This document shows positions 3,416 to 55,095 of a stretch of 64,000 nucleotides of DNA, piece after piece; the stretch's first letter is position 1, and the number at the start of each line of letters is the position of its first letter. Location: NCBI GenBank assembly GCA_963699165.1, contig OY969413.1, forward strand, positions 63,506 through 127,505. Direction: 5' to 3'. Under the pieces are notes generated by a model, which was not told the DNA's origin, did no database searches, and was given only the letters and a program-made list of their open reading frames with translations. Source of the stretch: Candidatus Kaiserbacteria bacterium. Lineage in GTDB: Bacteria; Patescibacteriota; Minisyncoccia; Phycocordibacterales; Phycocordibacteraceae. Both the position numbers and the translations under genes were made by a program.

Positions 3416-3987
3416 AAACTGCCCCGTTTGCGGCGGGGCAGTTTGAATGTGCTTGGCGTTATGCGAATACTTCGTAGATTGCGCGAATTGCCTCCTCAAG
3501 ATCGTCCTCATCGACTCCGATGGTGATGTTGCGTTCGCTTCCTCCCTGAATAATCAGCCGTACGTTTATGCCGCGCGCCGCGAGAGCGTCTTTGAAAACC
3601 TTGCCAGCGACACCCGGCGTGTGCGACATCGTATTTCCAACGACGCAGATGAGAGACAGGGGAGGTTCGACTTTGATAGTGTCGGGGTTGAGTTTGTTTT
3701 TAAGGCCCGACAGAACGACCTCGAGTTTGCCGTTTAAACTCTCGCTGCTCACCACGAAACTCGCGTCATCGATGCTCGTCGGAATGTGTTCGAGATTTAC
3801 TCCATATTCCAAAAACACATCGCAAGCGTCTCTCAAGAATCCGCTCAATTCGTTCATTGCGAACTTCGACACTGTTAACGCCATGAATCCTTTGCGTCCC
3901 GCGATGCCGGCGATTGTTCCCGGCGTTCTCGGCCGGGCTTTTTCATCTGGTACAATCCACGTGCCTTCGTCGTGGCACCCAAACCCC

Positions 3988-4911
3988 TCAATTCGAACGA
4001 CGGTTTTTTGCGCTCCTCTGAGCGCGTTGTTTCTTTTCCGCAGCATACGCCTCATCTGGCGTGAGTGAACCGAGCACATCCATGAAGCGGCGATTCATCT
4101 TTGCTTCGAGTTTCTGCACAAATCTTTTTGAATACTTTGAAATATCCGAGCTTTTCGGGATGTACCGCCGCAAGTCCTTGTTCAGATTCTCGATTGATGG
4201 CTTCTCCCATGGCGCATGCACATGACAGAAATATATCTTCACCCCAAGCACCTTCTCTAGCCGTTTGTGTTCGAGAAAGAGAATATCGTTGTCGAATGTG
4301 ATGGTCTGCATCTCGGGATACCGCTTTTTCATTCTGCGAAGCGCTCGCTCCACGTTTCGCACTGACACTGGCAGGATCCGCTCCAGCAGGTTTTTGCGCA
4401 CCCTGCGATCCCGCAGACCAAGAATGATGCCTTGACCGCTCTTGCCCGACACGATGAAGTCGCCCTCCATGTGACCCAATCCCCATCGCTTGTTGATTTT
4501 GCTCGGTCGTTTGTCGATCAGGCGCTTGTCGGCAATGTGTGGTTTCGATGGCCGAGAGCGTCGCCTCTTCTTGAATACCTTTGCTCGATGCGACTCGATC
4601 CGTCTGCCATACGGGCTCTTGATATATCGGCGTATAGCCGAGGATGAAGCATATCCGATATCCTTCTCGATCCGCTTCAATCGAAGTGAGATGTTTTCGG
4701 GCGACTGATCGTCGAAGAGATGCGCCTCGATGAACTTCCGGAGCTTCGGGTCGAGAGCAATCATCTTGCCGACCGCTCGGCTGTATTTCCTTCGTACGTA
4801 TGAAATGTGATGCGCATATGCAGCATCATACGGCCGTCCCTTCCTCTTCTTTTGCGTCTCGTACCATATGACACTCTTCGGTCGGTCGAGTGCATCTCCG
4901 ACATCTTGCAA
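3988..4911 (-). CDS. IS30-family DDE transposase
   Basis: The 307-aa protein has a basic N-terminal HTH region and the GHMEGDFI motif, matching the HWEGDLV signature of IS30 transposases. Confidence 0.8.
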   Translation of the reverse strand: MQDVGDALDRPKSVIWYETQKKRKGRPYDAAYAHHISYVRRKYSRAVGKMIALDPKLRKFIEAHLFDDQSPENISLRLKRIEKDIGYASSSAIRRYIKSPYGRRIESHRAKVFKKRRRSRPSKPHIADKRLIDKRPSKINKRWGLGHMEGDFIVSGKSGQGIILGLRDRRVRKNLLERILPVSVRNVERALRRMKKRYPEMQTITFDNDILFLEHKRLEKVLGVKIYFCHVHAPWEKPSIENLNKDLRRYIPKSSDISKYSKRFVQKLEAKMNRRFMDVLGSLTPDEAYAAEKKQRAQRSAKNRRSN

Positions 4912-5022
4912 AGAGTATCCCTTCGCTAACAGTATCTGTATTTCGTCTCGTTCGGACCTTGTGAAGTGCGCACCGCCGGAGGTTTTTTCATTCGCTCAAT
5001 GTATCAAACGTTCGAATTCAAA
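3988..5022 (-). mobile_element. IS30-family insertion sequence (~1.03 kb) inside lysC
   Basis: It has a single transposase ORF. Terminal inverted repeats ..GAATTCGAACG.. are found at ~3990-4000 and, in reverse complement, at ~5009-5019. Its size fits IS30. Confidence 0.75.
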
Positions 5023-6211
5023 AGACCAGTCGCCCGTCAGGACAGTTCGTGCTTCGCAAATTTACGGGAATGCCGGCCTCCCTCAAAGGAGCCATTGCAA
5101 GCGGATGGAATACTTCCGCTCCGCTGTATGCAAGCTCTCGAATCTCTTTAAAGGTGACTTCGCGAACTTGCTTTGCATGCGGGACTATCCGAGGGGGCGC
5201 GCCGAGAAGGCCCGGGACATCCGTCCAATTCTGATATACGTCCGCGCCTATGAGTGCCGCGACAATCGCACCCGTGAGGTCCGAGCCCCCGCGGGTGAAT
5301 GTTTTAATCGTCCCGTCGGGATTTGCGCCATAGAAACCCGGAATGACGCACTTCGCATCCTTCAAATCGAGAGCGTTCCAGCGCCACCGTGTTTCCTCCA
5401 TGTCGAGCTCGCCGTCTTTGAAGCTGACAAAGTCCACCGCGTCGATGCACTTATACCCAAGCACCTCCGCCATGACGATGGCGTTCAGATACTCGCCTCT
5501 GCTGACGAAATGATCGACGGAACAGTCCGGCTTGAAAGCGAGCCGTCGAAGCTCTTTCAAATCCAAATCGAGCAGATTCGGCGACAGACGCAGACCGGAA
5601 ATGATCTTGCGGTATCGTTTTTCGATGTCAACGAAGATGCTCCTGATTTCGGCTTCCGACAGGCGGCCTCGGTGAATCCTATAGAGCATGTCGGTGACTT
5701 TTTGCCCGTTTTTTCTCAGTTGTCCGGGGGCCGAGACGACTACACATTGGATTTTCCAGTCGTAAACGATTTGACGCACCTTGGCGACTTCTTCGGGTCC
5801 GGCGACCGAGGACCCGCCGAACTTGGCTGCTATCTTAGGCCCGTTCATAGGGACCTCCTTTTAAGGAACGAGAGTAATCTGACTCGAAGGTACCGAAAAA
5901 CACACCTCTCCGCAAGCGCGCTTCACTGACGCCACATGCACCATGCGAAACAATAGGGATTATTTCTAACCATCACGAACATGCTGTACACCATTGCCGC
6001 GATACTCATTGTTCTCTGGCTCCTCGGTCTTGCTACGGCGTATACGCTCGGCGGATTCATTCATATCCTGCTCGTAGTCGCCGTCATCATGATTCTTATT
6101 CGGCTTATACGCGGAGAAAGTCCGGCATAGCGCGCGGAAGACGCGCGTATCACGCTATCTTCAGAGACCTGTCGGTATGATGCGCAGTATTAGCAGTAAT
6201 AGATATCCGGT

Positions 6212-8913: not shown

Positions 8914-10107
8914 TTAATTATTCCATCCGTTTCCGGAACCGTGCCGGTCAGTTGTGTTGCGGATCCCTCCTTGTTGCTGTTGTCCGGATCTGTTGCCCCC
9001 GCCGCCGAATCCGGAGAGCGACGACAATTCCCGTTCAAGCGCCCGCACGCGGTTTTGCAGGTCTCTGATTTCGCTCTGTAAGGTTGCGAGGTCCGGTGTC
9101 GAAGTTGCCGGCGGCGTCACCGTCGTCACGGTTGTCATGAACGTCTGATCCGACGACGTCGCAAGCGTTCCCGACGCATCTGCCGACCATACTTCGTAGT
9201 GATACGCCGTATTAGGCACGAGATCGGCAAGTGTCACCGAATGGTTCGTGACATCGGCCGGGTCGAGCGTGCTCGAAAAGCCGTAAGCCGTTGTCGTGCC
9301 GTAGGTGACTTGCGACGTTGCCGCTTGGTCGGTGGTCCACGCGATGACCGCGGTCGTATCCGCAGGTTTCGCGGCGATTCCCGAAATCACGGGGGCAGCC
9401 GTTGTCGTTGTTGCCGTCTCCTCGGTTGTCACGAACGTTCCATCCGACGAGGTCGCAAGCGTTCCCGACGCATTTCCCGACAGCACCTGGAAGTGATACA
9501 ACGTTCCGGGCGTAAGAGACGTCAGTGAGACCGAATGGCTCGTAACGTCGGCGTTGTCGAGCGCGGAGTAGTTGTCATACGCCGTCGTGGTTCCGAATGC
9601 GACCTCGGAGCTCGACGGCTGGTCGGTGGTCCATGCAATCGTTGCGGCAGTGTCGGTCGCAGTCGCTATGATTCCGGAAATGACGGGCGGACTGTTTACC
9701 GTCGGCGATGTTCCCGTTGTCGTGAACGTCTCATCCGATGATGTTGCCAGCGTGCTCGACGCATTTCCCGACAGCACCTGGAAGTAATACAACGTTCCGG
9801 GCGTAAGAGACGTCAGTGAGACCGAATGGCTTGTAACGTCCGTCATGTCGAGTGTGCTCGATGCGCCGTAACTCGTCGTGGTTCCGTACGCAACCTGCGT
9901 CGTTGCGGCTTGGTCGGTGGTCCACGTGACCGTAGCAGAAGTGTCAGCCGGAACCGCGAAGATTGCCGAGATAACCGGCGGCGTCGAAGATGCCTCCTGC
10001 GCCTCTGCCGAAAGCGGCAGAATTACGCCGCCGGCGAACGTTATTGCCGCAAGAGGGAGCAATCCTCCGGCGTGCAACAGCATTCTGCGAAATATATTTT
10101 TCGTCAT
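8914..10107 (-). CDS. secreted protein with four tandem fibronectin-III / purple-acid-phosphatase-N-like repeats and a C-terminal coiled-coil plus Gly-rich tail
   Basis: A signal-peptide-like N-terminus (MTKNIFRRMLLHAGGLLPLAAITFAGG..) is followed by four ~90-aa repeats (PVISxI.A.PADT.A.I.WTTDQ..TSQV.YGTT..Y..S..D...T.HSV.L..L.P.T.Y.FQV.S..ASG). The annotated start is inferred from the signal peptide; the longest ORF extends to 10218. Confidence 0.7.
   Translation of the reverse strand: MTKNIFRRMLLHAGGLLPLAAITFAGGVILPLSAEAQEASSTPPVISAIFAVPADTSATVTWTTDQAATTQVAYGTTTSYGASSTLDMTDVTSHSVSLTSLTPGTLYYFQVLSGNASSTLATSSDETFTTTGTSPTVNSPPVISGIIATATDTAATIAWTTDQPSSSEVAFGTTTAYDNYSALDNADVTSHSVSLTSLTPGTLYHFQVLSGNASGTLATSSDGTFVTTEETATTTTAAPVISGIAAKPADTTAVIAWTTDQAATSQVTYGTTTAYGFSSTLDPADVTNHSVTLADLVPNTAYHYEVWSADASGTLATSSDQTFMTTVTTVTPPATSTPDLATLQSEIRDLQNRVRALERELSSLSGFGGGGNRSGQQQQGGIRNTTDRHGSGNGWNN
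9100..9990. repeat. four ~270-bp tandem coding repeats (FN3-like modules)
   Basis: Protein-level periodicity is seen in the ORF 8914..10107. The many antisense ORFs here are repeat artefacts. Confidence 0.7.
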
Positions 10108-10283
10108 ACGCGTTTGTAAGTTAGCTGGTAACTCGCAAATTTTGCGATGTTCTCGAGTGTTTGGTGGGCACACAAAGCGGTCTTGTTGCGAGAACAGACA
10201 GTATGGCGCGTATGCCATTAAAGGAGCGTGAATCGAGATACCGAATCATTCATTCGGCGAGCATACGGGCATGTGCCTATATG

Positions 10284-20962: not shown

Positions 20963-21475
20963 TTGCAAGCATTATCGAAAATAGGCACACGTGCTGTAAG
21001 CCTGTTCGCATTCTTTAGAGGGAGAAACAAGGTGGATGAAATCCAAGAGCTCATTCAAATAGCGAATGACGGGAAAAATGAGGGGTACTACGCGCCTGCT
21101 AATATTGTTTTCGTAGTGTTGCTGTTACGATATCTAGCAAATGAAGCAGGACTAGTTTTGAAAGTGGAAACCAACGATCCGGAAGGAGCAAATCCGAGCG
21201 AAGCATATTACGACCTGCTGGTTTTGTGCTACGGAGAGCACGAGATCTGCATTCCGGTGACGCTCATCGAGCGTACCTTGCTTTTTACAGCCATGAAAAC
21301 AAAACCGCAGTGTGTTGCCCGGAGGAATCATAGACGTCAGGTCAGCGTAGGAGAACCCGCAAGGGAAATTTGTCGTCAAGAGAGGATCTGTGAACTTCTC
21401 GGTGAAAATCTCATACGATACGCTGTGGATCGCATCGAATCGCCCATGAAATCGGTACGTTCTCACGGGTATTAA
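20963..21475 (+). CDS. hypothetical protein whose 3' end lies inside the IS1595 terminal repeat (probably disrupted)
   Basis: 170-aa ORF with no recognisable domain. Its last codons are encoded by the IS inverted repeat. Confidence 0.3.
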   Translation: MQALSKIGTRAVSLFAFFRGRNKVDEIQELIQIANDGKNEGYYAPANIVFVVLLLRYLANEAGLVLKVETNDPEGANPSEAYYDLLVLCYGEHEICIPVTLIERTLLFTAMKTKPQCVARRNHRRQVSVGEPAREICRQERICELLGENLIRYAVDRIESPMKSVRSHGY

Positions 21476-22320
21476 GAACGAGTTGGCACAAGCGTTAATG
21501 ATTTTAATAAGTAAGTGCGCGGATTTCCGAACAATTCCGGTGAGGAAAATCTGAAGCAGAATTCCCTCACGTATTGCTCGAGGTTCTCGCTCCAGTGATG
21601 ATGATACATCCTCCGCACAAAGGTGCGGTATACGCCGAACACGCCTTCGATTTCGGAGGTATGTTCGAACTCGAATTTTGAATGAATGTCTCTGCTGTGG
21701 GAGACCGGCCATCGCTTGCCGACACCCCGGTATATCGAACCGCCATCGGTCCACAACTCGCTCCCCGGCTTCACTTTGGCAAAGAGAAAGTCCATCACGT
21801 CCGTCTTGTTCGGGAAGCGATTGTGCATGACGGTATAGGCAAGCTTTCTCGTTCCTTTCTGCTTGGCCATCACGAGAGCTGCGTTCTTGAAATATGCCTC
21901 GTCCATCTGCACGATACGCTCGAGAATATGCTCTTCTTGGGGCAAATGCTCACGAAAGGTGGCATACCAGCGGCGTATCGTTCGTTCAGGCAAATGCGTG
22001 AGCTCCATGGCCTGCAAGACGGGTTCTCGTATCGTCCAGCACCAGAGGAGCATCCACCACGTCTGGAGCGGAAGCTTGAGGTTTGAGAGCCAGGTATGCG
22101 AGAGGAGCGAGAACCTTCGGCGGCAGGCAACACACCGGTACCGGTCTTCGTACCGCACAATCCTGCGCGAGCGGCAGAGCGGGCAAAACACATTCTTTCC
22201 GAACAACGTTCGCCGCAAAAACTTTCTAATCTGCACTTCAGACGGAATTTGTTTGAGCGTGTACATAGCTTCCATGATACGGGAGCTGTGCCAACAGAGT
22301 CTGAATACCCGTTCTCACGC
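21456..22320 (-). mobile_element. IS1595-family insertion sequence (~0.87 kb)
   Basis: It has a single transposase ORF. Imperfect terminal inverted repeats CGTTCTCACGGGTATTAAGAACGAGTTGGCACA are found at ~21458 and TGTGCCAAC..AATACCCGTTCTCACG at ~22319. Confidence 0.7.
21472..22275 (-). CDS. IS1595-family transposase (N-terminal Zn-ribbon + DDE domain)
   Basis: It has an N-terminal CPLC..CVAC zinc ribbon and the QMDEAYF DDE core typical of ISXO2/IS1595 transposases. Confidence 0.8.
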   Translation of the reverse strand: MEAMYTLKQIPSEVQIRKFLRRTLFGKNVFCPLCRSRRIVRYEDRYRCVACRRRFSLLSHTWLSNLKLPLQTWWMLLWCWTIREPVLQAMELTHLPERTIRRWYATFREHLPQEEHILERIVQMDEAYFKNAALVMAKQKGTRKLAYTVMHNRFPNKTDVMDFLFAKVKPGSELWTDGGSIYRGVGKRWPVSHSRDIHSKFEFEHTSEIEGVFGVYRTFVRRMYHHHWSENLEQYVREFCFRFSSPELFGNPRTYLLKSLTLVPTRS

Positions 22321-23534: not shown

Positions 23535-23912
23535 ATGCATGACCTGACGCCCTATAAAGACAAACCGTCTGACGAGTGGCTTTCTGTTACAGAGAAGTTG
23601 ATTAAGGAACATCCATTAGGACCTGAAGCGATGGTCGCAGTAGTAAAGAAATCATGGGATCAGATTTTCACGAGCAAAATCGGTGGAGTTATCCAGATAG
23701 GAGAAGAGATCGCCCTTACCCCTCAAATGATTGGTAATTTTCTGCATGTATTAGTTGCACATAATCTTTCAGAGAGCTCGCCGGAACTATGGCGGATAGA
23801 GGCTGCCGCTGGGGAAAAAGATGTTGTGTACGTGCCGGACGACTACTACTCATTGTACCGACCCCTATTCTTCAGACCACTTCCTAGACGAGTGAAGATA
23901 GTGTACGGGTGA
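23535..23912 (+). pseudogene. hypothetical protein, C-terminally truncated by IS-A copy 1
   Basis: The ORF is real-looking up to ~23853. Its last ~19 codons (..RPLFFRPLPRRVKIVYG) are encoded by the IS-A terminal repeat, and the same tail appears wherever IS-A abuts an ORF. Confidence 0.4.
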
Positions 23913-24696
23913 TGTGCGATTTCGCAAACTCTCTCGGTGCCATCTTGAGTGTTGAGTGTATACGCACGGTGTTGTACCGGTGAATTGTCTGATAGATTTC
24001 AGCAACAAGTTCACCAAGCGTATCGAAGCGATTGGGATCGCCCAGATCAGTTTTGAATTTTCCATAGAACGATTCTTGGTACCCGTTCTCCCACGGACAG
24101 CCCTTTTTTGAGCGAGAGATGCTGATGCCGAAATTGATGAGCATCTCTCGGAAGGATGCGGCATTGTATTCCACTCCGTTGTCGCTGTGAAAGATGGTGG
24201 GACGAGGATGGTTGAGAAGTGCCGCGCACAATGCCTGCGTCACAAGTACGGTTCCACCTCGCGTACCAATGGCGAGCCCAACGACACTTCGAGTGTATAC
24301 GTCCATGGTGGTTGCCACACGAATGTCTTTCCCTTTGAAATACACATGAGTGAAATCAGCGACCCATGCTTGATGCGGATAGGCGGGTACAATCCGCATC
24401 AGGAGATTTGGATACTCCACGGCTTGTTTCCTTGATTTCCTCCACCGTCTTCCTCTTCTTCGATATGCTTTGATACCAAAGAGTCGCATGACTCTTTGAA
24501 CCTTCTTTTTGTTCTCCTTGAGATACAGGGCAACTCTCCGGTATCCATACGAAGGAAACTCTCGAAGGACTTCTTCAATACGGCATTTGAGTGCCCAGTC
24601 TTTGTCAGGCTTCTTCTTTTGATACCAGAAGGTGGAACGAGCTATACCAAGAGTACGCGCTGTTGTGCGCGTACCAATCGGAGATTCTTTGCTCAC
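23884..24696 (-). CDS. IS3-family transposase OrfB (DDE integrase core)
   Basis: 270-aa rve domain (..WVADFTHVY..HSDNGVEY..CPWENGYQESFYGKFK..). Confidence 0.85.
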   Translation of the reverse strand: MSKESPIGTRTTARTLGIARSTFWYQKKKPDKDWALKCRIEEVLREFPSYGYRRVALYLKENKKKVQRVMRLFGIKAYRRRGRRWRKSRKQAVEYPNLLMRIVPAYPHQAWVADFTHVYFKGKDIRVATTMDVYTRSVVGLAIGTRGGTVLVTQALCAALLNHPRPTIFHSDNGVEYNAASFREMLINFGISISRSKKGCPWENGYQESFYGKFKTDLGDPNRFDTLGELVAEIYQTIHRYNTVRIHSTLKMAPREFAKSHITRTLSSLV

Positions 24697-24950
24697 TTCT
24701 TTTTTTGGGTTTCAGACAGCTTGAGCGTCATGAGTCCAACAAGACGAAGGAGTTCGTCATTCTCTTTTCGAAGTCTCGCAATCTCAAGAACAGATGCGGT
24801 ACCGTCTTGCACTTTCGCACCAAGCCAGCCATAGATGGTGGTCTCGTGGATACCATGCTCTTTGGCCGCTTGGGCGACAGTGACACCATCGTTCTTGATT
24901 CGATTAATGATTTGTTCCTTCACCTCAGGAGCGATGCGGTATTGCTTCAT
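24693..24950 (-). CDS. IS3-family transposase OrfA (HTH)
   Basis: 85 aa: MKQYRIAPEVKEQIINRIKNDGVTVAQAAKEHGIHETTIYGWL.. with a leucine-zipper tail. Confidence 0.85.
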   Translation of the reverse strand: MKQYRIAPEVKEQIINRIKNDGVTVAQAAKEHGIHETTIYGWLGAKVQDGTASVLEIARLRKENDELLRLVGLMTLKLSETQKKK

Positions 24951-25029
24951 ATGACGTCATTCTAGCGGTTAATCCCGTCTAGAACATGGTCTGAAATTTG
25001 GGGGTCAGGTCAATTGTCATCCATAAGTT

Positions 25030-25633: not shown

Positions 25634-26983
25634 CTAGATATTGCTCAGATCAACGTTTCCCATTATTACTTCTCGGTCTTTTAGTATCAACTGACTTTTA
25701 AGGCATGACAGTAGTTCTCGCTTTTCCGTAATCGTACCGTCCTTAAGTAAATATTTTGCATAGGTACGTATGTCGATATCGGGTGCACGATCTTTTTTCT
25801 TCGCACCGAGCACGCCCATTCGGAATTTGTTATATCGCACGATCTCTTCTTCTATTTTTTCTCGCATACCAATCTCATCCAGGTCGAGTGTGTCAAGCAG
25901 TTTCGATAGTTCTTCGATTAGTGCAGTCTCGTTAATGGCCGGATTCGTGCAGTCGGTTTTTGTACTTCGCGTACACATATAGTACACATGGCGATTCGCG
26001 CCTCCATTCTTCAGTTTCTTGAATTTCTCATCGGCAGTGATGCCGCTTCCGCAGTATCCGCATTTAATGAGTTTCGTAAATGCGAACTCCTTGCTCTCGG
26101 TCTTGGGGATATAGCGATCAGTGACCGCTTCATGTACTTTGTCGAATAATTCCTTCGTAATGAGTGGCTCATGTTTACCTTGATACCAATTGCCGCTCTC
26201 GACCGGGTATTCAAATTCGCCGTAGTAGAAGGAGTTGTGAAGAAGGAGAAAGATATTCCCTAAGGAAAGTGTTTTGCCGGTTCGTGTCTTGAATCCCATT
26301 TTCTTGAGCCACCGAAATACATCTCTACCACTCCATCCATCGTTACCAACTTTCTCGAATATCTGACGCACTACAATTGCGCGTTTCGGATCAGGTCGTA
26401 CTTGGCACTTCTTGTCGACATTCTTTTCTGGAAGATATCCGGTTGGTGCAACGCTCGGCCGCCATCCCGTTTCGCAACGTGCTCGCAGTCCGCGCTTCAC
26501 ATTGATTATTTTTTGATCGTTCTCGAGCTTCGCCTGCGAGCCGAGAATCATGAGCATGAATTTCTCGTTCGGATTGTTTGTGAATGTCTGACTATAGGTG
26601 CGGATCTCAACGAGCTTCTTTTGGTCAAACAGATCCACGACGGCGCCAAGGTCTCCGGCGTTACGACTTAACCGATCCGGTGCCCACGTCAGAATGCCGT
26701 TGAATTTGCCACATCGAATATCATCGAGAAGTTGGTTGTATATCGGCCTTTGGCCGACTTCCTTAGAGGAGTGCGATTCGCGCTTGATCTCAACGATCTC
26801 GAGACTTTCGCGCGAAGCGATGTCCGTCATTTCTTTCACTTGTGATTCGATGGAAAGAATTTGCCGATCTTCTTCCAAAGTACTTTTTCTTGCATAAAGG
26901 CAGTATTTAACCTTGATGGGTTCCGGTTTGACGGCCTGCCTCATAATGCCGCTAAAGGGTGCCCGAATTGCTGTTTGTGTCAT
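25634..26983 (-). CDS. large serine recombinase (integrase of the tRNA-Phe element)
   Basis: An N-terminal resolvase catalytic domain (YARKST..S..Q..) is followed by a recombinase domain, a Cys-rich zinc ribbon (CGYCGSGI..YYMCTRS) and a C-terminal coiled-coil. It reads toward tRNA-Phe. Confidence 0.85.
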   Translation of the reverse strand: MTQTAIRAPFSGIMRQAVKPEPIKVKYCLYARKSTLEEDRQILSIESQVKEMTDIASRESLEIVEIKRESHSSKEVGQRPIYNQLLDDIRCGKFNGILTWAPDRLSRNAGDLGAVVDLFDQKKLVEIRTYSQTFTNNPNEKFMLMILGSQAKLENDQKIINVKRGLRARCETGWRPSVAPTGYLPEKNVDKKCQVRPDPKRAIVVRQIFEKVGNDGWSGRDVFRWLKKMGFKTRTGKTLSLGNIFLLLHNSFYYGEFEYPVESGNWYQGKHEPLITKELFDKVHEAVTDRYIPKTESKEFAFTKLIKCGYCGSGITADEKFKKLKNGGANRHVYYMCTRSTKTDCTNPAINETALIEELSKLLDTLDLDEIGMREKIEEEIVRYNKFRMGVLGAKKKDRAPDIDIRTYAKYLLKDGTITEKRELLSCLKSQLILKDREVIMGNVDLSNI

Positions 26984-27135
26984 ACAGACACAAGGAATGA
27001 CGCTGACCGCTCTAGGAGTCCAGAGCGTCCGATGCCCTGAGTTGATAAGAAACGGCTTTATTTCAGGTCATTTTTGTGCTAAAATCACAAAATCCACTCA
27101 CTCTGTGGTCACTTTAAATTGGAGAAAAATAGCTA

Positions 27136-28586
27136 TGTTTGAAAATTCATTCAAAAATATAGACCAAATACTTCATACAGATTCTGGTTCAGCCACTGAA
27201 CTGGACTATGTCGAGCAGACATCGTGGATTCTCTTTTTGAAATACCTTGACGATTTGGACGAGGCAAAGAAAACGGAATCGGCCTTAGCAGGCAAAAAAT
27301 ACAGCTATATTCTTGATCCGCAGTATCGTTGGAACACTTGGGCTGCTCCAAAAACCGCTGATGGGAAAATAGATCATAACAAGACGCTCGACGGTGATGA
27401 TTTAAATGATTTCGTGAATCAAAAGCTATTTCCGTATTTGAAAAAATTTAAAGCCGAGGAACCGAATACTATTGAATATAAGATTGGTGAGATTTTTAGC
27501 GAGCTTAAGAATAAGATTTCTAGCGGCTATAAGTTGCGTGAGATTTTGAATATTGTTGATCGGATGCACTTCCGTCTATATGAAGAGAAGCATGAGCTGT
27601 CGCACCTCTACGAGGCAAAAATTAAAAATATGGGAAATGCCGGTAGAAATGGTGGCGAATACTACACACCGCGACCTCTTATTAAAACCATTGTAAAAGT
27701 AGTCGCGCCGACCATCGGCGAGACAATCTATGACGGTGCCTGTGGCTCGGCAGGATTCTTGGTGGAGTCGTTTAATTTTCTTACGCAGAATCAAGCCAAG
27801 CTGTCATCGGCGCAGATGGCGACACTTCAGAACAAGACGTTTTATGGAAAAGAAATAAAATCCCTTGCCTACATTATCGGCATCATGAATATGATCCTGC
27901 ACGGTATTGAAGCGCCGAACATCAGGCATATGAACACGCTCGCGCAGAACATTAACGACATTCAAGAAAAAGACCGCTACGATATTGTTCTAGCCAACCC
28001 TCCTTTTGGTGCGGGTATTGGGCGAGAGATTCAGCAAAACTTCCCCATAAAGACTGGCGAGACGGCATTTCTATTTCTTCAACACTTCATAAAAATACTC
28101 AAAGCTGGTGGTCGCGCGGGAATTGTTATTAAAAATACATTCCTATCCAACACCGACAATGCTTCTGTCAGTCTCCGCAAACTCCTTCTGGAGAACTGCA
28201 ACCTACATACCGTACTCGATCTGCCGGGAGGTGTTTTCGCCGGGGCAGGAGTGAAGACGGTCGTGCTCTTCTTTGAGAAAGGAAAGCCGACGAAGAAGGT
28301 GTGGTTCTATCAGCTGAATCTAAAGCGCAACCTCGGCAAGACCAATCCCCTTAATGAAGCAGACTTGGCAGAGTTTGTGGCGCTACAGAAGACGAAGGCG
28401 GATAGCGAGAATTCATGGAGCGTTGATATCTCAAGTGTTGATCAAAACACCTTTGACCTGTCAGTGAAGAATCCAAACAAAGGTGATGGGGTAGCTCTTC
28501 GTAGCCCTAAAGAGATTTTGAAACAAATGAAGGATTTAGATAAGGAAAGTGAAAAAATAGTGGCATCTCTAGAAAAACAACTATGA
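27136..28586 (+). CDS. HsdM-like N6-adenine DNA methyltransferase (type I RM M-subunit family) with no HsdS/HsdR partner
   Basis: It has an HsdM_N-like N-terminus, an NPPFG catalytic motif and a SAM-binding GACGSAGFL. An RBS GGAGAAAAA precedes the ATG at 27136. Its stop overlaps the start of the SIR2 gene (cTATGA). Confidence 0.8.
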
Positions 28587-29012
28587 AAGAACTAAAAGAT
28601 ATTAAAAAAACAATAGATAGCGCAAACATTAATTTCTTAATTGGATCAGGGTTGTCTAGTCCTTTTCTAGAAATTCTCAACCAAATTGAAACCAAGCTAA
28701 CGAAAGCAGAAAACGAAAAGAACGATGTTGAAGTTTTAAGATTAATGAAGGAATACTTTGAGAAATCGATGCTTGGAAACCTAAAAATCGTTGCTGAAAT
28801 TACTGATAAGGTTAAAGATGGAGTTCTAAAAAATTATGAAGATTTTTATAAGAAAATTAATCACATAGTTTTAAAGAGGGAGAGTTCCATTCTAACAAAA
28901 CAAATTAATGTCTTTACCACAAACGTAGATATTTTCTCTGAAAAGGCGCTAGAAAATACAGGGATTGGAAGGTACCCCTTTCTTCGTACACTCATTCTAT
29001 AAGTATAGGATA

Positions 29013-29795
29013 CTATGCTCTGCTCAGAGCAACAAACTCTCTTGGCGCCATACGCAGTGCTGAGTGAATGCGAGCGGTATTGTGATAGTGGATGGTGAGG
29101 TAGATCTCAGCCACTAATTCACCTAACGTGTCGAATCGGTTCGGATCACCCAGGTCAATCTTGAACCCTTTGTAGAAGGACTCTTGGTAGCCATTCTCCC
29201 AGGGACATCCAGGACGAGACATAGATTGCTGTATGCCGATCGTTGCCACGAGCATCGCATAATCCTTTGAGGCATACTCGCTGCCTTGATCCGAATGGAT
29301 GACACGAGGTGGCGATTTGTGATGCAATGCAGAGAGAAGTGCATTCATGATGAGTTGCGTGCTGTGGGTGGTGAGGACTGACACACCGACAATCTCTCGG
29401 GAATAGACGTCAAGGATGGTAGCGACGTATACCCAGTACCCGTGGTACTTGAGGTAGGTGAAGTCACTCGCCCAGATGTCACCGTCCTGCTCGGGAGTTT
29501 GATGGAGCAAGAAGTTCGGGAATATACTGTCTTTTGTCTTTAGCACAAATCGCTTCTTTGCGGTCCTCCGATATGGTTTGATACCGAACAATTTCATCAC
29601 ACGCAGAATGCGCTTTTTGTTGACTTTGAGGTAGAGTGCCAACCGTTTGTGCCCATAGGCGGGATGGCTATGCAGAGCTTCTTCGATGAGTTGCTTTGTG
29701 TGCCAATCCCTCCGAGCCTGCTTCGGCTCGTAGTACAGCGTACTGCGAGCAATACCGCTCTCGCGTGCAAGAGCACTCTTGTTTTCTCTCATCAA
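29013..29795 (-). CDS. IS3-family transposase OrfB (IS-B)
   Basis: 260-aa rve integrase core (..HSDQGSEYAS..CPWENGYQESFYKGFK..). Confidence 0.85.
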   Translation of the reverse strand: MMRENKSALARESGIARSTLYYEPKQARRDWHTKQLIEEALHSHPAYGHKRLALYLKVNKKRILRVMKLFGIKPYRRTAKKRFVLKTKDSIFPNFLLHQTPEQDGDIWASDFTYLKYHGYWVYVATILDVYSREIVGVSVLTTHSTQLIMNALLSALHHKSPPRVIHSDQGSEYASKDYAMLVATIGIQQSMSRPGCPWENGYQESFYKGFKIDLGDPNRFDTLGELVAEIYLTIHYHNTARIHSALRMAPREFVALSRA

Positions 29796-30052
29796 GAGCC
29801 CCTTTTTTCTCCGTTTGAGAGTTTAAACGTCAATTCTCCGATGAGTGCTTTAAGGAGACCGTTCTCCTTCTTCACTCTGTTGTGCTCAATGATACTCACT
29901 CCTTTTGCAGAGGTGCCAAGCCAAGCATAGATAGTGACGGTACTGACTCCGTGTTCTTTCGCTGCCTCAGCGACACTGATGCCATCGTTTTTGATACGGT
30001 TGATAATCTGCTCCTTAATCTCAGGAGCAATACGGTATGCTTTCTTTGCCAT
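29792..30052 (-). CDS. IS3-family transposase OrfA (IS-B)
   Basis: 86 aa: MAKKAYRIAPEIKEQIINRIKNDGISVAEAAKEHGVSTVTIYAWL.. Confidence 0.85.
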   Translation of the reverse strand: MAKKAYRIAPEIKEQIINRIKNDGISVAEAAKEHGVSTVTIYAWLGTSAKGVSIIEHNRVKKENGLLKALIGELTFKLSNGEKRGS

Positions 30053-31010
30053 AGGTACATTCTAAATTAGCTGCTGGTATTTAGAATGAGTGTCCGACGT
30101 TTGGGGTACCTTGCAGATCGATTTTAATGATGGTTTCAACGGAAGATTCAATCCTAAATATGATGTGGGAAATTTCAAGAAGTCTTATTTCAAGAAGAGT
30201 CTTCATTATGAGAACACGTCCGAAATACCTGTATTTAATATACTGAAGTTACACGGGTCTCTTTCTTGGAAAGAAACTGATAGAGAGATTTATTTGGATA
30301 GTGTCTTGGAACAAGTAAAAGAAGTCGAAAATAATAAAGTGTCTGAATTTTATGATTGTTTCAAAAAATTGATGGTCGTTAATCCAACTAAACAAAAGTT
30401 TGGAGACACATTATTAAATCAACGCTACTACGACTTGCTCAGAATTTTCTCTAACGAACTAGAGAAGGATAATACCGTACTATTCGCGATGGGCTTTTCA
30501 TTTATGGATGAGCACATTTACGACCTAACATTGAGAGTTGCAAATTCTAATCCTACTCTGAATATTTACATATTTAGTCACGGCTCCAAACCGAGTGATA
30601 CCTATCTAAAACTGGAAGCGGATGCTAAAAATAAAAATATAAAAATCCTTATTCCGGAAAGTGGAAAAGAGTACAGTCTAGAAACAATAACTTCAGACTG
30701 TTTTGATAAGATTATTCTCCCTGAAAAAGAGGTTGGCAAAGGGCTTATAGATACTTCATTGCCACAAAAAGATGACTGACGACCTTACCTTAATGGAGAA
30801 ATACATAATTGATAACTCAATTTTTAGAATTGGGAAGGTTATTGAAATATCAGGTCAATCTGTAAAAGTAAAAGTAGATACTGGGAAAAACACATCCTCA
30901 ATCTTGTATAAGGGGGAGATAATGCAAAATATTTCTGTACAAGGATATGTGAAAATAAAGAAGTGGAAGGTACCCCTTTCTTCGTACACTCATTCTATAA
31001 GTATAGGATA

Positions 31011-31793
31011 CTATGCTCTGCTCAGAGCAACAAACTCTCTTGGCGCCATACGCAGTGCTGAGTGAATGCGAGCGGTATTGTGATAGTGGATGGTGAGGTA
31101 GATCTCAGCCACTAATTCACCTAACGTGTCGAATCGGTTCGGATCACCCAGGTCAATCTTGAACCCTTTGTAGAAGGACTCTTGGTAGCCATTCTCCCAG
31201 GGACATCCAGGACGAGACATAGATTGCTGTATGCCGATCGTTGCCACGAGCATCGCATAATCCTTTGAGGCATACTCGCTGCCTTGATCCGAATGGATGA
31301 CACGAGGTGGCGATTTGTGATGTAGCGCAGAGAGAAGTGCATTCATGATGAGTTGCGTGCTGTGGGTGGTGAGGACTGACACACCGACAATCTCTCGGGA
31401 ATAGACGTCAAGGATGGTAGCGACGTATACCCAGTACCCGTGGTACTTGAGGTAGGTGAAGTCACTCGCCCAGATGTCACCGTCCTGCTCGGGAGTTTGA
31501 TGGAGCAAGAAGTTCGGGAATATACTGTCTTTTGTCTTTAGCACAAATCGCTTCTTTGCGGTCCTCCGATATGGTTTGATACCGAACAATTTCATCACAC
31601 GCAGAATGCGCTTTTTGTTGACTTTGAGGTAGAGTGCCAACCGTTTGTGCCCATAGGCGGGATGGCTATGCAGAGCTTCTTCGATGAGTTGCTTTGTGTG
31701 CCAATCCCTCCGAGCCTGCTTCGGCTCGTAGTACAGCGTACTGCGAGCAATACCGCTCTCGCGTGCAAGAGCACTCTTGTTTTCTCTCATCAA
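31011..31793 (-). CDS. IS3-family transposase OrfB (IS-B copy 2)
   Basis: Identical to 29013..29795. Confidence 0.85.
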   Translation of the reverse strand: MMRENKSALARESGIARSTLYYEPKQARRDWHTKQLIEEALHSHPAYGHKRLALYLKVNKKRILRVMKLFGIKPYRRTAKKRFVLKTKDSIFPNFLLHQTPEQDGDIWASDFTYLKYHGYWVYVATILDVYSREIVGVSVLTTHSTQLIMNALLSALHHKSPPRVIHSDQGSEYASKDYAMLVATIGIQQSMSRPGCPWENGYQESFYKGFKIDLGDPNRFDTLGELVAEIYLTIHYHNTARIHSALRMAPREFVALSRA

Positions 31794-32050
31794 GAGCCCC
31801 TTTTTTCTCCGTTTGAGAGTTTAAACGTCAATTCTCCGATGAGTGCTTTAAGGAGACCGTTCTCCTTCTTCACTCTGTTGTGCTCAATGATACTCACTCC
31901 TTTTGCAGAGGTGCCAAGCCAAGCATAGATAGTGACGGTACTGACTCCGTGTTCTTTCGCTGCCTCAGCGACACTGATGCCATCGTTTTTGATACGGTTG
32001 ATAATCTGCTCCTTAATCTCAGGAGCAATACGGTATGCTTTCTTTGCCAT
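31790..32050 (-). CDS. IS3-family transposase OrfA (IS-B copy 2)
   Basis: Identical to 29792..30052. Confidence 0.85.
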   Translation of the reverse strand: MAKKAYRIAPEIKEQIINRIKNDGISVAEAAKEHGVSTVTIYAWLGTSAKGVSIIEHNRVKKENGLLKALIGELTFKLSNGEKRGS

Positions 32051-33246
32051 AGGTACATTCTAAATTAGCTGCTGGTATTTAGAATGAGTGTCCGACGTTT
32101 GGGGTACCTTGCATAAAGAATTGCCATTAATAGACAATACTTGTTTTTTACTCACAAAAGAGGAGTTTAATAAAATCCATGAATTTGTTAATAAAGATGA
32201 CAAACCTATCGAAATAGGAAGATTGGAATACGACGATGGTCAAAAAATAGAACTAGGCATAAACAAATTATTTGCTAGCCATATAGGTATATTTGGTAAT
32301 ACTGGAAGCGGTAAATCATATACGCTCGCAAAAATCTATAGAGAATTATTCAAAATCTTTAAAGATAGTCCGAAATTTCAAAAAAATGCAAAGATCTTCC
32401 TGATTGATTTTAATGGCGAATATATTGGAGAACTGGAAGAGAGTACTGGTAAATACAAAAGTAGAGATGTAATCGTTGAAGAGAAATATAAGAATATATA
32501 CGAACTAACGACGAGAAAAAAGATTGAAGATATTACGGAAGAAGAAAAGTTTCCTATCCACGAATCAGCAATAAAAGATTCTACGTTTTGGTCAATTTTT
32601 CTCTCGGCAACTGAAAAGACCCAGATACCTTTTTTGGAGAGAGCTATTAGAGATACTTATATTGAAGAAAGATTGAAGAAAGAGAAATCTTTTAAAGACC
32701 TTCTTAGTGCCAAGATATTTGATGCAGTAACACAAATAGACAAAAAGACCGAGAAGAGTGTAATAACGGATTTGTTAAACGAATTATTTCATTATTTAGA
32801 TAAAAACGAATCTATAAAAGAAGCGGAGAAATACTTCAGAGAGAACTACGGTATTTTCCAAAAGGAGGGAAAATCAGTATTTAAGTTAAATAAAAATAAT
32901 GCAGATCACTACTCGGATAATGCTAATGACATAAAGACATTTCAGGATGATATAAATGAGCAGGTTGCAAAAATATCGGAAGTAAAAGTCGACGAACTGT
33001 CCACAATAAAGAGATTGGGGCTACAAATCATAATTAAATACTACGATGAAATGATTCGTGGATTTTCAAACAGAGAACATCTCTCTCCTTTGATCAAGCG
33101 ACTTGACCAAAGGATTTTGGATCTAGAGAAGGTCTTAGTAGTAGTGGAAAAAATCAGTAAATCTGAAAAGAACTTCACTGTTATTGACCTGACCCCCAAA
33201 TTTCAGACCATGTTCTAGACGGGATTAACCGCTAGAATGACGTCAT

Positions 33247-33504
33247 ATGAAGCAATACCGCATCGCTCCTGAGGTGAAGGAACAAATCATTAATCGAATC
33301 AAGAACGATGGTGTCACTGTCGCCCAAGCGGCCAAAGAGCATGGTATCCACGAGACCACCATCTATGGCTGGCTTGGTGCGAAAGTGCAAGACGGTACCG
33401 CATCTGTTCTTGAGATTGCGAGACTTCGAAAAGAGAATGACGAACTCCTTCGTCTTGTTGGACTCATGACGCTCAAGCTGTCTGAAACCCAAAAAAAGAA
33501 GTGA
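33247..33504 (+). CDS. IS3-family transposase OrfA (IS-A copy 2)
   Basis: Identical to 24693..24950. Confidence 0.85.
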   Translation: MKQYRIAPEVKEQIINRIKNDGVTVAQAAKEHGIHETTIYGWLGAKVQDGTASVLEIARLRKENDELLRLVGLMTLKLSETQKKK

Positions 33505-50312: not shown

Positions 50313-50340
50313 ATAACTACGGACCGCAAGTATTTGTCTT

Positions 50341-51042: not shown

Positions 51043-51106
51043 CCCCCTAACGGTACCGCAAGACACCAAGTGAGGCAATTGCAAGGCCTTTGGGCGACCT
51101 ATACAA

Positions 51107-51537: not shown

Positions 51538-52563
51538 TCAAAGATTTCGGCTTCGGTTTGTATCTGCGCCGAGGGTGATTGCCACCTTGGTTTTAGGGAT
51601 AAGCGCCGCGAGCGTGTGCGCGTTGCCGTGCGAGAGCAGTCCTCGGTACGATGCGAGTGTAGCCTCCTCCGGTTCTCCTTGGAGCGCCTTGAGCATCCTT
51701 CGCTTGGTGCTGGTGCGCAGCACGTCGTGATCGGGGAAATGCACCCAGCCGAGAAAGTCGATGCCTGACGCGAGGGTGGAGATGGAGACCTTGTTCGGGT
51801 GCAGCTCGAGCTTGAGCGTATCGCGCAGGTATTCGCGTATGTGCGGCAGTAGCGCTTCAAGCTCGATTCGATCCATTGAGAGCACTACGAAGTCGTCGGC
51901 ATAACGGAGGTAGTAGCGGGCTTTGAGGCGATGCTTCACCCATTGGTCGAACTCGTTCATGTACACGTTCACGAGGAGCTGGCTGGTGAGGTTGCCGAGC
52001 GGGAGACCCTTCCCCGGCGTGCCGGAGCGGAAGCTCTCGATTACGTTTTGGAGCAGGGCGAGCGTGCGCTCGTCGTTGACGTGATTGCGCAAAATGCCGA
52101 GGAGCACTTCGTGATCGATGGAGGCGAAGAACTTGCGCACGTCGCACTTGAGTACCCACAGCGTCTTGGTGTGATTCTTGCTCGCTTTGTACGCATAGCG
52201 CTTGAAGGCGGCTATGGCGCGATGGGTACCCTTGTCGAGGCGGCAGGAGTACGAGTCGGGAATGAAGGTGCGATTGAAATAGGGATAGAGAACTCGATAG
52301 ATGGCGTGATGCGTGAGGCGGTCGCGCACTCGTGCCTTGTGAATGTCGCGGGGCTTGGGGTCACTAATCCTGAAATGCGAATACGGGCCGTGGCGATAGG
52401 TGCCGGACGCCAGCTCGTCATGGAGTTGCGAGATGTTTTCAACAAGGTTGTACTCGAAAGCCTGCACATCTTTCTTCTGCCGCTTGCCGCGTATAAATTC
52501 TTTCCATGCGTCGAGCAGATTATTGGGAGAAATGATACTTTCGTATGTATGAGTGATTTCCAT
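51538..52563 (-). CDS. diversity-generating retroelement (DGR) reverse transcriptase
   Basis: The RT domain carries the YADDFVV (YxDD) box and the DGR-specific LPLGNLTSQLLVNVYMNEFD motif. The N-terminus resembles DGR RTs (..RGKRQKKDVQAFEYNLVENISQLHDELASGTYRHGPYSHFRISDPKPRDI..). The start is taken at MEITHTYE; the longest ORF to 52779 adds a GC-rich low-complexity leader. Confidence 0.85.
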   Translation of the reverse strand: MEITHTYESIISPNNLLDAWKEFIRGKRQKKDVQAFEYNLVENISQLHDELASGTYRHGPYSHFRISDPKPRDIHKARVRDRLTHHAIYRVLYPYFNRTFIPDSYSCRLDKGTHRAIAAFKRYAYKASKNHTKTLWVLKCDVRKFFASIDHEVLLGILRNHVNDERTLALLQNVIESFRSGTPGKGLPLGNLTSQLLVNVYMNEFDQWVKHRLKARYYLRYADDFVVLSMDRIELEALLPHIREYLRDTLKLELHPNKVSISTLASGIDFLGWVHFPDHDVLRTSTKRRMLKALQGEPEEATLASYRGLLSHGNAHTLAALIPKTKVAITLGADTNRSRNL

Positions 52564-52604
52564 TCTTTTAGTTCCCCCCCCCCGCAATCGCCCCTGACAA
52601 GCTC

Positions 52605-52964
52605 GTGCCGGTGGTGTTGAAACTAAAGGAAGCATACCTCGCGTGGCAGCAGGCGCTTCCGCATGTCGCCAAGGCGCGGCGGCAGACCGTGGGGGCGCGG
52701 ATCGATGGGGCGCTCCTCGACACGCTTGAGCACGCCTTTCGTGCCGGGTATGCCTCGGGCACTCGCAAGCTGGAGGCACTTGAGTATTCGATCGAGAAAC
52801 TCGATGCCGCGAGGTTCTTCCTGCTTGTGGGCTGGGAAAGCGCCGCGCTCACGAACGCGCAGTACATGCGCATAGCAGGACTCTTAGTGGATGCGAGTAA
52901 GATGCTCGTCGGGTGGAAGGCGTATATGGAAAAGAAAACTCCCGCGAATAGCGAGAGAAAGTAA
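52605..52964 (+). CDS. putative Avd-like four-helix-bundle accessory protein, encoded on the strand opposite to RT/TR
   Basis: 119 aa with a GTG start. Its helical heptad pattern (LKEAYLAWQQA.., ..LEALEYSIEKLDAARFFLLVGWESAALTNAQYMRIAGLLVDASKMLVGWKAYM) resembles DGR Avd / 23S-IVS four-helix-bundle proteins. The same-strand ORF over this region (52568..53062) is Ser-rich and not protein-like. Confidence 0.4.
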   Translation: MPVVLKLKEAYLAWQQALPHVAKARRQTVGARIDGALLDTLEHAFRAGYASGTRKLEALEYSIEKLDAARFFLLVGWESAALTNAQYMRIAGLLVDASKMLVGWKAYMEKKTPANSERK

Positions 52965-52967
52965 GAC

Positions 52968-53079
52968 GAGTTTCGGACGAGGAGTCGATTGTCAGCGTTC
53001 CAGCGATTGTCGTTGCCGAGCCTGTTGACGTTCGCGTTCCACCTCGAGTCGTCGCGATTCACGTTGGCGACCGAGACGC
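52968..53079 (-). repeat. DGR template repeat (TR), 112 bp
   Basis: It is 102/112 identical to the VR. All 10 differences sit at adenines of the TR sense (minus) strand: 9 A->G and 1 A->C. TR codons are rich in AAC/AAT (Asn). Confidence 0.85.
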
Positions 53080-53319
53080 TATGTGCCGCTCACCATCCAT
53101 ACCACCGCCCATCGAATGCTCTCCGGGCTGTATCTGATTTGAGGCCGTGAGCCCGCAAGCGGGCGACACCAACTTGAATTTCTTTTTTCGGGCGTTTATA
53201 CCCGGAACCTCGCCACCCGAAGCCCGAGGGCCGCAAATGCCAGCGTGTTCGTATAAAATTATACCCCTCTTCGCGCAAGCGCGAAGAGGGGTAATTCGAG
53301 GAAGCCCGAATACAGGGAC

Positions 53320-54015
53320 TTAGGATCCCAGTTTCGAAGCGTCCAAGTTGCGGACGAGGAGCCGATCGTCAGCGTCCCAGCGATCGTCGTTGCCGAGCCT
53401 GCTGACGTCCGCGTTCCACCTCGAGTCGCCGCGATTCACGCCGGCGACCGAGACGCTGCCGTTCTTGTCTTCGACGAAGAACCAGTTGGCCCAGCCGTCG
53501 GTGCGCATGCCGGTATTGCCCGGCTTGCTCTCCGTGGCCTCGACCATGGCCTCGGCTTGCGCCAACGTCATGGTGTGGCCGCGCTCTATGAGGAGCGCTG
53601 CCAGCTTCTCGATCGAAGTGTCCGCGGGAACGCCGAGGACAAACGCTGCCCATTGCGCGAACGTCGCGTCCCGCGAGGGAGTGAGCGTCGTGATGGTGCA
53701 GGCGGCCGCTTCAGGCTGTTCCTTGGGGAGCCAGCCGTCGAAGTCGCTGTCGCGGTACGCATAGCGCGAGGCGGTGAAGCACTTCTTCGTCGGCTTGCCA
53801 ACGACCACAGCGAGCTCTGTCGTCGCGGAAGCGGAAAGCAATGCGGCCGGTGCAGTTGCGCTCTCCGGTGGCACGAGGCCAGCAAGGAACTTCTTGGTCG
53901 CGGCGGGATTGTTCATCCAGCCGTCCATGATCTCGTCGGTCAGCGTGTCGGGAAAATTCTGGATCATGAACCCCGCGAATGCGGCGGTTTTCTTGTCGTA
54001 GGCCTTCGCACTCAT
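53320..54015 (-). CDS. DGR target (variable) protein with a C-terminal ligand-binding VR, probably a C-type-lectin/FGE-like fold
   Basis: 231 aa. The C-terminal ~40 residues are encoded by the VR, with the upstream ..GWANWFFVED.. motif common in DGR targets. Confidence 0.75.
   Translation of the reverse strand: MSAKAYDKKTAAFAGFMIQNFPDTLTDEIMDGWMNNPAATKKFLAGLVPPESATAPAALLSASATTELAVVVGKPTKKCFTASRYAYRDSDFDGWLPKEQPEAAACTITTLTPSRDATFAQWAAFVLGVPADTSIEKLAALLIERGHTMTLAQAEAMVEATESKPGNTGMRTDGWANWFFVEDKNGSVSVAGVNRGDSRWNADVSRLGNDDRWDADDRLLVRNLDASKLGS
53346..53457 (-). repeat. DGR variable repeat (VR) at the 3' end of the target gene
   Basis: It encodes ..NRGDSRWNADVSRLGNDDRWDADDRLLVRN.., where TR would encode NRDDSRWNANVNRLGNDNRWNADNRLLVRN. 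It ends ~24 nt before the target stop codon. Confidence 0.85.
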
Positions 54016-55033: not shown

Positions 55034-55095
55034 TGACCTGACCCCCAAATTTCAGACCATGTTCTAGACGGGATTAACCGCTAGAATGACGTCAT

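Follow-up and report, generated by a model that had tools for sequence, protein, structure and literature searches.

Insertion sequences (ISs) of the IS30 family, typified by IS30 of E. coli, are described with one uninterrupted open reading frame (ORF), and the catalytic triad of their transposase follows a simple rule recorded in ISfinder, with 33 residues between the second aspartate and the glutamate and a lysine or arginine seven residues after the glutamate. Monofunctional aspartate kinases (AKs) of the clostridial/Firmicutes type, represented by PDB 3TVI and the NCBIfam model PRK09034, comprise a kinase domain followed by a C-terminal ACT region. The two meet in the 64,000-nt stretch of contig OY969413.1 (positions 63,506 to 127,505, assembly GCA_963699165.1, Candidatus Kaiserbacteria bacterium) analysed here as a whole and referred to as the window, in which, with a probability of about 0.9, the single-copy monofunctional AK gene (lysC) of a member of the Minisyncoccia is interrupted between codons 271 and 272 by a 1,061-bp IS30-family element. 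All coordinates are those of the window, and both the split gene and the element are read on the minus strand.

Other IS families depend on recoding for the synthesis of their transposase. In the review of the subject, the families listed as using frameshifting are limited to IS1, IS3, IS5, and IS630, and IS30 is not among them (PMC5009743). IS1 and IS3 use a -1 ribosomal frameshift at A6C or A6G, and elements from Deinococcus and Roseiflexus use transcriptional slippage at A8-9 or T5C5 (PMC5009743, PMC1088944), the slippage-using ISs known so far carrying their A8-9 runs between two ORFs (PMC1088944). In E. coli, moreover, productive reiterative initiation occurs commonly at AAA/TTT tracts of the initially transcribed region (PMC12709180). 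The start of the transposase gene in the element described here invites comparison with both groups.

The Interrupted Aspartate Kinase Gene

The AK gene comprises 441 codons, split between D271 and D272, with the junction reading ...STNCPD/DEGTWIV... where the slash marks the break. The N-terminal coding part (5036..5848, -) encodes M1-D271 and the amino-acid kinase domain, and it continues into the element through five IS-templated codons, G-R-L-V-F, and a TGA stop (5018..5035, -), read directly from the sequence and found as the same tail in three further contigs (L001-L003). The resulting 276-residue ORF (5848..5018, -) matches PF00696 AA_kinase in Pfam with an E-value of 2e-32 and covers positions 4-281 of PRK09034. 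The C-terminal coding part (3459..3971, -) encodes D272-A441 and a TAA stop, comprising the GTWIV strand and the ACT region, as supported by ACT_9, PRK09034, and a gap-free alignment; this frame (3971..3459, -) matches ACT_9/ACT in Pfam, with an E-value of 2e-22 for ACT_9, and covers PRK09034 positions 281-448, so that the two pieces abut on the family profile. Pfam discloses one ACT_9/ACT stretch in the last 62 residues, the first ACT domain being implied only through the co-linear alignment with 3TVI and PRK09034. By alignment, the insertion lies in the loop directly before the GTWIV segment that precedes this first ACT domain.

The residues GRLVF and the stop that end the N-terminal fragment, together with all residues before D272 in the downstream ORF, are templated by the element. 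The ACT fragment is translatable only as a chimera from an ATG within the IS, in a frame that differs from that of the transposase; the resulting 195-residue ORF (3459..4046, -, ATG at 4046) corresponds to MFZ1075162.1, annotated as 'ACT domain-containing protein' in a public metagenome-assembled genome (MAG). An exact look-up left the 307-, 258-, and 206-residue ORFs unrecorded, and a look-up allowing variant starts matched the 195- and 258-residue forms.

Deletion of the element and of one ACG copy of its target-site duplication (TSD) restores a 441-residue protein reading ...NLRSTNCPD/DEGTWIVPD..., which matches TIGR00657 asp_kinases with 242.7 bits (cut-off 208.7) in one stretch, residues 6-440 aligning with profile positions 4-440 of 442. 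The match to PRK09034 (NF006540) is likewise single and uninterrupted, covering positions 4-448 of 454, and that to PDB 3TVI (E-value 5e-100, residues 6-440) is gap-free across the junction. The junction is also gap-free in the alignment with seven homologues, for instance P0048 with NTNAPEDEGTWIV and P0101 with NAPDDPGT. All 118 columns invariant among the homologues in a 7-sequence alignment are kept (118/118), including the motifs KFGGSS, SRGEY, TFxRGGSD, and NWTDV, as well as K9, E119, R186, and D190, which, from E. coli AKIII, we take to be the catalytic residues. The predicted insertion-free sequence across the junction is ...AACTGTCCTGACGACGAAGGCACGTGG..., and the predicted empty site is AACTGTCCTGACGACGAAGGCACGTGGATTG. 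The restored protein thus resembles the clostridial/Firmicutes-type enzymes in being full-length, co-linear, and composed of a kinase domain and a C-terminal ACT region, but it differs from them in scoring below the 434-bit equivalog cut-off of PRK09034, in being only 46-48% identical to any full-length relative, and in being interrupted.

A preliminary description of this DNA, made from the letters alone, had proposed an AK gene disrupted by an IS30-family element, and profile matches now place all three parts where it had located them. Its fragments at 5018..5848 and about 3459..3985 stand as such, the AK coding parts proper being 5036..5848 and 3459..3971; its statement that the AK sequence is continuous across the insert also stands, with the residues read as NCPD/DEGTWIV and not as NCPDG/TWIV, the 'G' being IS-templated. 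An origin of the two fragments from different genes, which it had named as the observation that would overturn it, is contradicted by the one-stretch TIGR00657 match, the gap-free junction, and the alignment with 3TVI.

Boundaries of the IS30-Family Element

The element occupies 3974..5034 (-), its ends being set by the limits of conservation in an alignment with 11 genome-derived and 80 metagenome-derived relatives, in which similarity starts at GGCGACTGG... (window position 5034) and stops at ...GGGTGCC (window position 3974). The 26-bp terminal inverted repeats (IRs) are imperfect, with 16 of the 26 positions matching by hand count: the left IR (5009..5034, -) reads GGCGACTGGTCTTTTGAATTCGAACG, and the right IR (3974..3999, -), given as its reverse complement, reads GGCACCCAAACCCCTCAATTCGAACG and holds the TGA stop of the transposase (3990-3988). 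The perfect 10-bp AATTCGAACG at 3990-3999 and 5009-5018 represents the inner core of these repeats (positions 17-26) and is by itself not significant, at least two matches occurring in 11 of 100 shuffles. The insert of about 1.03 kb with AATTCGAACG-type termini given in the preliminary description therefore needs revision: homologous copies extend it to 1,061 bp (3974-5034), with GGCGACTGG... and ...GGGTGCC as the true ends. A copy of exactly this length, 98.5% identical and located at another site, is found in a JGI metagenome (L016), and one relative is a stand-alone 1,061-bp contig (L004).

A perfect 3-bp TSD, ACG/ACG, flanks the element, with copy 1 at 5037-5035 (5035..5037, -) and copy 2 at 3973-3971 (3971..3973, -). 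Among the non-redundant related loci with both flanks, 17 of 56 display a 3-bp TSD, against about 0.9 expected by chance; the loci that lack it are plausibly short chimeric contigs of a repeat. A 4-bp TSD (GACG) with a 1,063-bp IS was considered and discarded, given that the homologous ends stop at ...GGGTGCC and that this solution would leave one residue too few; a duplication of 3 bp is preferred because no other length yields the five residues that separate STN from GT in the homologues.

Transposase and Family Membership

The open transposase frame (3988..4995, -), delimited by NF033563, HTH_38, and frame analysis, comprises 335 codons followed by TGA. The product matches NF033563 (IS30 family) with an E-value of 2.6e-49 and 168.4 bits (NCBIfam cut-off 80), and carries PF13936 HTH_38 at its N-terminus (E-value 8e-7, residues 3-37 of the open frame). 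The DDE triad, numbered in a 326-residue translation, is D170/D226/E260, giving the spacing D(55)D(33)E with an arginine at +7 after the glutamate. The assignment relies on NCBIfam because Pfam gave no match on the 307-residue ORF; on the longer frame Pfam reported only HTH_38, its rve model leaving the catalytic core undetected.

As a newly described IS30-family member, the element shares with the family (i) a single DDE transposase of about 335 residues with an N-terminal helix-turn-helix (HTH), (ii) the D(55)D(33)E motif and the basic residue at +7, and (iii) a length of about 1.06 kb, 26-bp imperfect IRs, and a 3-bp TSD. By analogy with other IS30-family elements, the DDE transposase would act by copy-out/paste-in through a circular intermediate. 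The start architecture does not follow the description of the family: the transposase is never read in the frame of the conserved ATG, and the single-ORF start of the family is not found here. Further differences comprise the silence of the Pfam rve model, a left end in which a promoter scan revealed no -35/-10 pair, and the hosts of the clade, those that are named all belonging to the Candidate Phyla Radiation (CPR)/Patescibacteria, the others being mostly groundwater metagenomes. A second copy of the transposase, differing by one residue (P0244), resides in the same 993-kb genome, which explains why assemblies break at the element.

An Out-of-Frame Transposase Start

The transposase frame is open from 4995, and its first canonical in-frame start is a TTG at 4911, use of which would delete half of the HTH. 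Upstream of this codon lies a conserved ATG (4991-4989) followed by a run of six adenines (4988-4983; together 4983..4991, -), one nucleotide out of register with the transposase, whose frame is -1 relative to the ATG. A comparison set of 71 non-redundant relatives with 50-100% amino-acid identity (loci L004-L097) extends this observation to the whole clade: the conserved ATG is in the transposase frame in 0 of 71 copies, the transposase being at -1 in 59 and at +1 in 12. In 87 of 88 copies a run of A4-9, mostly A6 or A7, comes directly after the ATG. Under neutral drift of run length, the probability of finding none in frame would be about (2/3)^71 if the copies, which are related, are treated as independent. 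Close relatives one A apart (A8 versus A9) occupy both out-of-frame states and never the in-frame one, and selection seems to act against in-frame variants. L054, which is more distantly related (40% identity), displays a plain in-frame ATG.

Both reading frames bear constraints. Codon-position entropies of 0.95/0.74/1.71 in the transposase frame, over 21 codons upstream of any canonical start, indicate that those 21 codons are translated, and in 12 non-redundant copies the ATG frame runs for only 3-4 codons before a stop, which confines any frame change to the A run. Of the 120 homologues listed, 54 reach 318 residues or more; not one of these starts with MKK, and the starts that gene callers assigned are varied and ad hoc. 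Immediately upstream, a putative -10-like hexamer TACATT (4998..5003, -), preceded by TG at 5006-5005, lies 6 nt before the ATG; across the 71 copies, the pattern TAnnnT is conserved relative to the A of the ATG with T at -12 in 87%, A at -11 in 92%, and T at -7 in 99%, which is exactly the spacing at which a sigma-70 -10 box would direct transcription to start at the ATG. This arrangement suggests a leaderless AUG-A(n) mRNA, in which the upstream 'in-frame stops' are accounted for as the 3' part of the -10-like hexamer and the discriminator. The 60 nt after the A run display no unusually stable RNA structure in this copy (z = +1.4), hence no sign of a frameshift-stimulating hairpin in it.

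Taken at slightly better than even odds, the transposase of this clade would be made only by slippage on the A run at codons 2-3 of a leaderless AUG-A(n) mRNA, a proposal drawn from comparative sequence analysis. The slippage could take the form of reiterative or transcriptional addition of adenines, or of a -1/+1 ribosomal shift; adding one A, or two, to the transcript would suit both frame classes by one mechanism, with a ribosomal shift or DNA-level phase variation as possible alternatives to transcript slippage. Two other accounts fail. A sequencing-error frameshift in A6 is contradicted by the clade-wide arrangement and by the recurrence of A6 in L001, a separate MAG contig, as well as in L016, the copy with 98.5% identity; decoding of the upstream in-frame TGA as sense (genetic code 4 or 25) is contradicted by the 20 of 46 long ORFs of the window that end in TGA. 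Because the out-of-frame start is clade-wide, the copy in lysC presumably represents the normal, active type and not a decayed relic.

Comparison with recoding-dependent ISs highlights a conserved slippery run of adenines at the required frame change, constraint on both frames, and the absence of in-frame versions, all three found in this clade; low transposase levels would be the expected effect in both cases (PMC5009743, PMC1088944). The differences concern (i) the position of the run, here at codons 2-3 after a probably leaderless AUG and there between orfA and orfB, (ii) the upstream DNA-binding ORF product, none being expected here, (iii) the length of the run, mostly A6-A7 and thus below the A9 discussed for elongation-phase slippage, and (iv) the coexistence of -1 (59 copies) and +1 (12 copies) states in one clade. 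The likeness to reiterative initiation of the pyrBI type (PMC12709180) lies in an A tract that falls among the first 10 nucleotides of the transcript and follows a well-placed -10 element; the known cases are not reported to set the reading frame, the role proposed for the tract here from sequence considerations. Literature searches combining IS30 with slippage, and Patescibacteria with ISs, returned nothing relevant. If the proposal is correct, this would be, according to the recoding review and these searches, the first programmed recoding reported in the IS30 family, which would join IS1, IS3, IS5, and IS630 as recoding users, and an unusual example of a reading frame being set right where an mRNA begins. 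Annotation pipelines would then need a rule for such transposases, which are now called as truncated, as pseudogenes, or with ad hoc starts.

Origin, Age, and Consequences of the Insertion

The exact 276-residue N-terminal fragment is recorded as P0001/MFZ1074949.1 in a 'Minisyncoccia bacterium' MAG, and is also encoded on a 993,452-bp contig. The reduced or symbiotic lifestyle evoked in the preliminary description agrees with this host, a Minisyncoccia (CPR) MAG with a longest contig of 993,452 bp. The same AK-IS junctions are present in GCA_049279115.1 and in two Logan assemblies drawn from different sequencing runs (ERR10755936 and SRR27973122), 99.98-100% identical to the window, an identity indicating that all samples represent one clone. 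In GCA_049279115.1 the two AK halves lie on two contigs that end 126 and 122 nt inside the IS, breaks that would fit a repeat-induced interruption of a k=127 assembly; overall, the junction contigs of GCA_049279115.1 and Logan run 19-126 nt into the element from unique flanks. No insertion-free allele of the gene was found among 5.8 billion protein clusters and the matching assemblies. The insertion is inferred to be evolutionarily recent from its perfect TSD, its intact IRs, and the absence of a secondary lesion in either fragment, and it would nevertheless be fixed in the clone sampled by the four assemblies; the very recent insertion evoked earlier as an option fits the perfect TSD, the intact IRs, and the undecayed fragments that keep all 118 invariant columns.

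As read from the sequence, the full-length allosteric AK is no longer producible, leaving a predicted 276-residue kinase fragment and an ACT-region fragment. The neighbours of the split gene encode DinB, a DUF6629 membrane protein, small ORFs, and a hybrid histidine kinase. A second AK and the downstream pathway genes, which the preliminary description had proposed to seek in the rest of the genome, were sought within the 64-kb window: tblastn disclosed no second AK there, nor were asd, dapA/B, hom, thrB/C, or lysA present. Patescibacteria are reported to be consistently without amino-acid biosynthesis genes (PMC12455944), which argues that auxotrophy, in the preliminary description implied by the interruption unless a second AK exists, probably predates the insertion, and loss of the AK is probably of little consequence because the organism would be expected to scavenge amino acids anyway.

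The best full-length match of the restored AK belongs to a cluster named 'Patescibacteria group bacterium', in which the gene is intact and stands alone among ruvABC, an aminoacyl-tRNA synthetase (aaRS), a penicillin-binding protein, dnaN, and dnaA. On a Hainich groundwater contig of another Patescibacteria MAG (L098, 8001-9314; also L099 and L100), an intact stand-alone AK of 437 residues, 46% identical, is flanked by ruvC and a class I aaRS; dnaA/dnaN are close by, and the surrounding 8 kb contain no further gene of the aspartate pathway.

Several points weigh against the interpretation of an inactivated lysC or limit its reach. The restored protein, at 418.2 bits, falls just below the 434-bit equivalog cut-off of PRK09034 (NF006540), which is nonetheless the nearest model. 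The loss of function is itself deduced, and the kinase fragment, in which all invariant residues are kept, may still be active without regulation. Since the four assemblies amount to essentially a single clone, 'fixed' applies to that clone only, and a scan of JGI metagenome contigs for the AK flank gave 0 matches, which is uninformative on empty sites. A more radical doubt is that the element was misjoined to the AK halves by assembly, the real gene being intact or the fragments unrelated, as could happen with a multi-copy IS at which short-read assemblies break; yet both junctions recur, from unique flanks, in separate contigs of GCA_049279115.1 and in the two Logan assemblies, the TSD is a perfect 3 bp, removal of the IS restores a gap-free AK, and the protein collection holds no intact allele. 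The chimera that the preliminary description had considered is excluded by the recurrence of these junctions in three other assemblies, which break inside the IS, and an artefact of any kind is very hard to credit. Continued function of the split gene as two polypeptides, a feedback-insensitive 276-residue kinase and an ACT fragment translated from ATG 4046, is improbable. Such an arrangement would resemble AKs of separate catalytic and regulatory chains, and it could draw on the two open fragments with all invariant columns, on a break close to the kinase/ACT boundary, and on the annotated 195-residue ORF into the ACT region with GAGG 3 nt upstream of its ATG. The absence of decay is, however, equally expected for a recent insertion, the start of the ACT ORF is an accident of the transposase 3' end, and the N-terminal fragment lacks the GTWIV segment conserved after the break in all homologues and scores far under the cut-offs of short AK-like models (TIGR02078, 87 versus 242 bits; PRK08373, 93 versus 237 bits).

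An inactivating insertion into lysC thus remains preferred, and disruption of a gene by an IS is in itself an ordinary, routine knock-out. As a refinement of this reading, tentative and at less than even odds, the insertion may have been selectively neutral, the AK being already an orphan in an organism auxotrophic beforehand and the IS marking the erosion of a dispensable gene. The AK stands alone in a 64-kb window that lacks asd, dapA/B, hom, thrB/C, and lysA and is densely populated by mobile elements; identity to the closest full-length relatives reaches only 46-48%, none exceeding 48% among the 5.8 billion protein clusters, and Patescibacteria are reported to be consistently without amino-acid biosynthesis genes (PMC12455944). 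Against such erosion, the AK displays no decay except the IS, and another Patescibacteria MAG retains an intact lone AK (P0003/P0246, 46% identical) surrounded by housekeeping genes, which implies that a lone AK can be maintained in the CPR. The locus offers a dated snapshot of a roughly 1-Mb CPR genome that still carried an AK and is now losing it to an IS.

Other Mobile Elements and Repeats

The locus shares with IS-mediated pseudogenization in host-restricted bacteria the combination of a biosynthetic gene cut by an IS and a region dense in identical ISs, as in the IS expansions of Shigella and Sodalis, but differs in its host, a CPR genome of roughly 1 Mb. By rough estimate, the identical ISs account for about 15% of the region, and mobile DNA altogether for roughly 15% of the window; to our knowledge, CPR genomes are streamlined and usually carry few ISs, about 15% mobile DNA being unusual for a genome of about 1 Mb.

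An IS3-family element of about 1,160 bp is present in four 100% identical copies (23853-25014, 33183-34347, 55034-56192, and 56757-57917), each comprising a 270-residue rve ORF, with an HTH_Tnp_1 orfA called in L015; a fifth copy lies just outside the window (L015, 5475-6633), and short-read contigs break at these copies. A second IS3-like element, with a 260-residue rve ORF, is present in two 99.4% identical copies (28952-30115 and 30951-32113), which are interspersed with an HsdM-type methylase, a SIR2-like ORF, and a HerA/DUF87-like ORF (26913-28586, 30090-30779, and 32088-33218), an arrangement suggestive of a defence locus repeatedly invaded by ISs. A portion of this second repeat, about 296 bp, recurs at 56193-56759. 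Further mobile genes (21472-22275, 54134-55048, 25634-26983, and 61779-63476) comprise an IS1595-type transposase, an IS481-like transposase (HTH_32 + rve), and two large serine recombinases.

The segment 51538-54015 (-) is probably a diversity-generating retroelement, to judge from its gene content and repeats. It comprises a reverse transcriptase ORF (52779..51538, -; RVT_1, E-value 3e-24) and a 112-bp repeat pair (52969-53080 and 53346-53457) in which 10 of 10 mismatches are T to C/G on the plus strand, that is, A to N on the strand of the reverse transcriptase, the adenine-specific signature of a template repeat and a variable repeat; the 3' end of ORF 54015..53320 contains the variable copy. 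Close by, within 50338-51043, two direct repeats of about 258 bp, 91% identical (50470-50728 versus 50786-51043), occupy the non-coding stretch between a TauD-like ORF and the reverse transcriptase gene; their mismatches are of mixed type, which rules them out as a template-repeat/variable-repeat pair.

Finally, the ORF at 8914-10218 (-) encodes a Pur_ac_phosph_N/fn3 protein with internal repeats of about 294 bp, 72-75% identical, at 9120-9981. Its product comprises 389 residues in L001 (5766-6935) and 292 residues in the Logan contig L002 (3941-4819), and the repeat number appears polymorphic between samples, since this difference corresponds to about one repeat unit.

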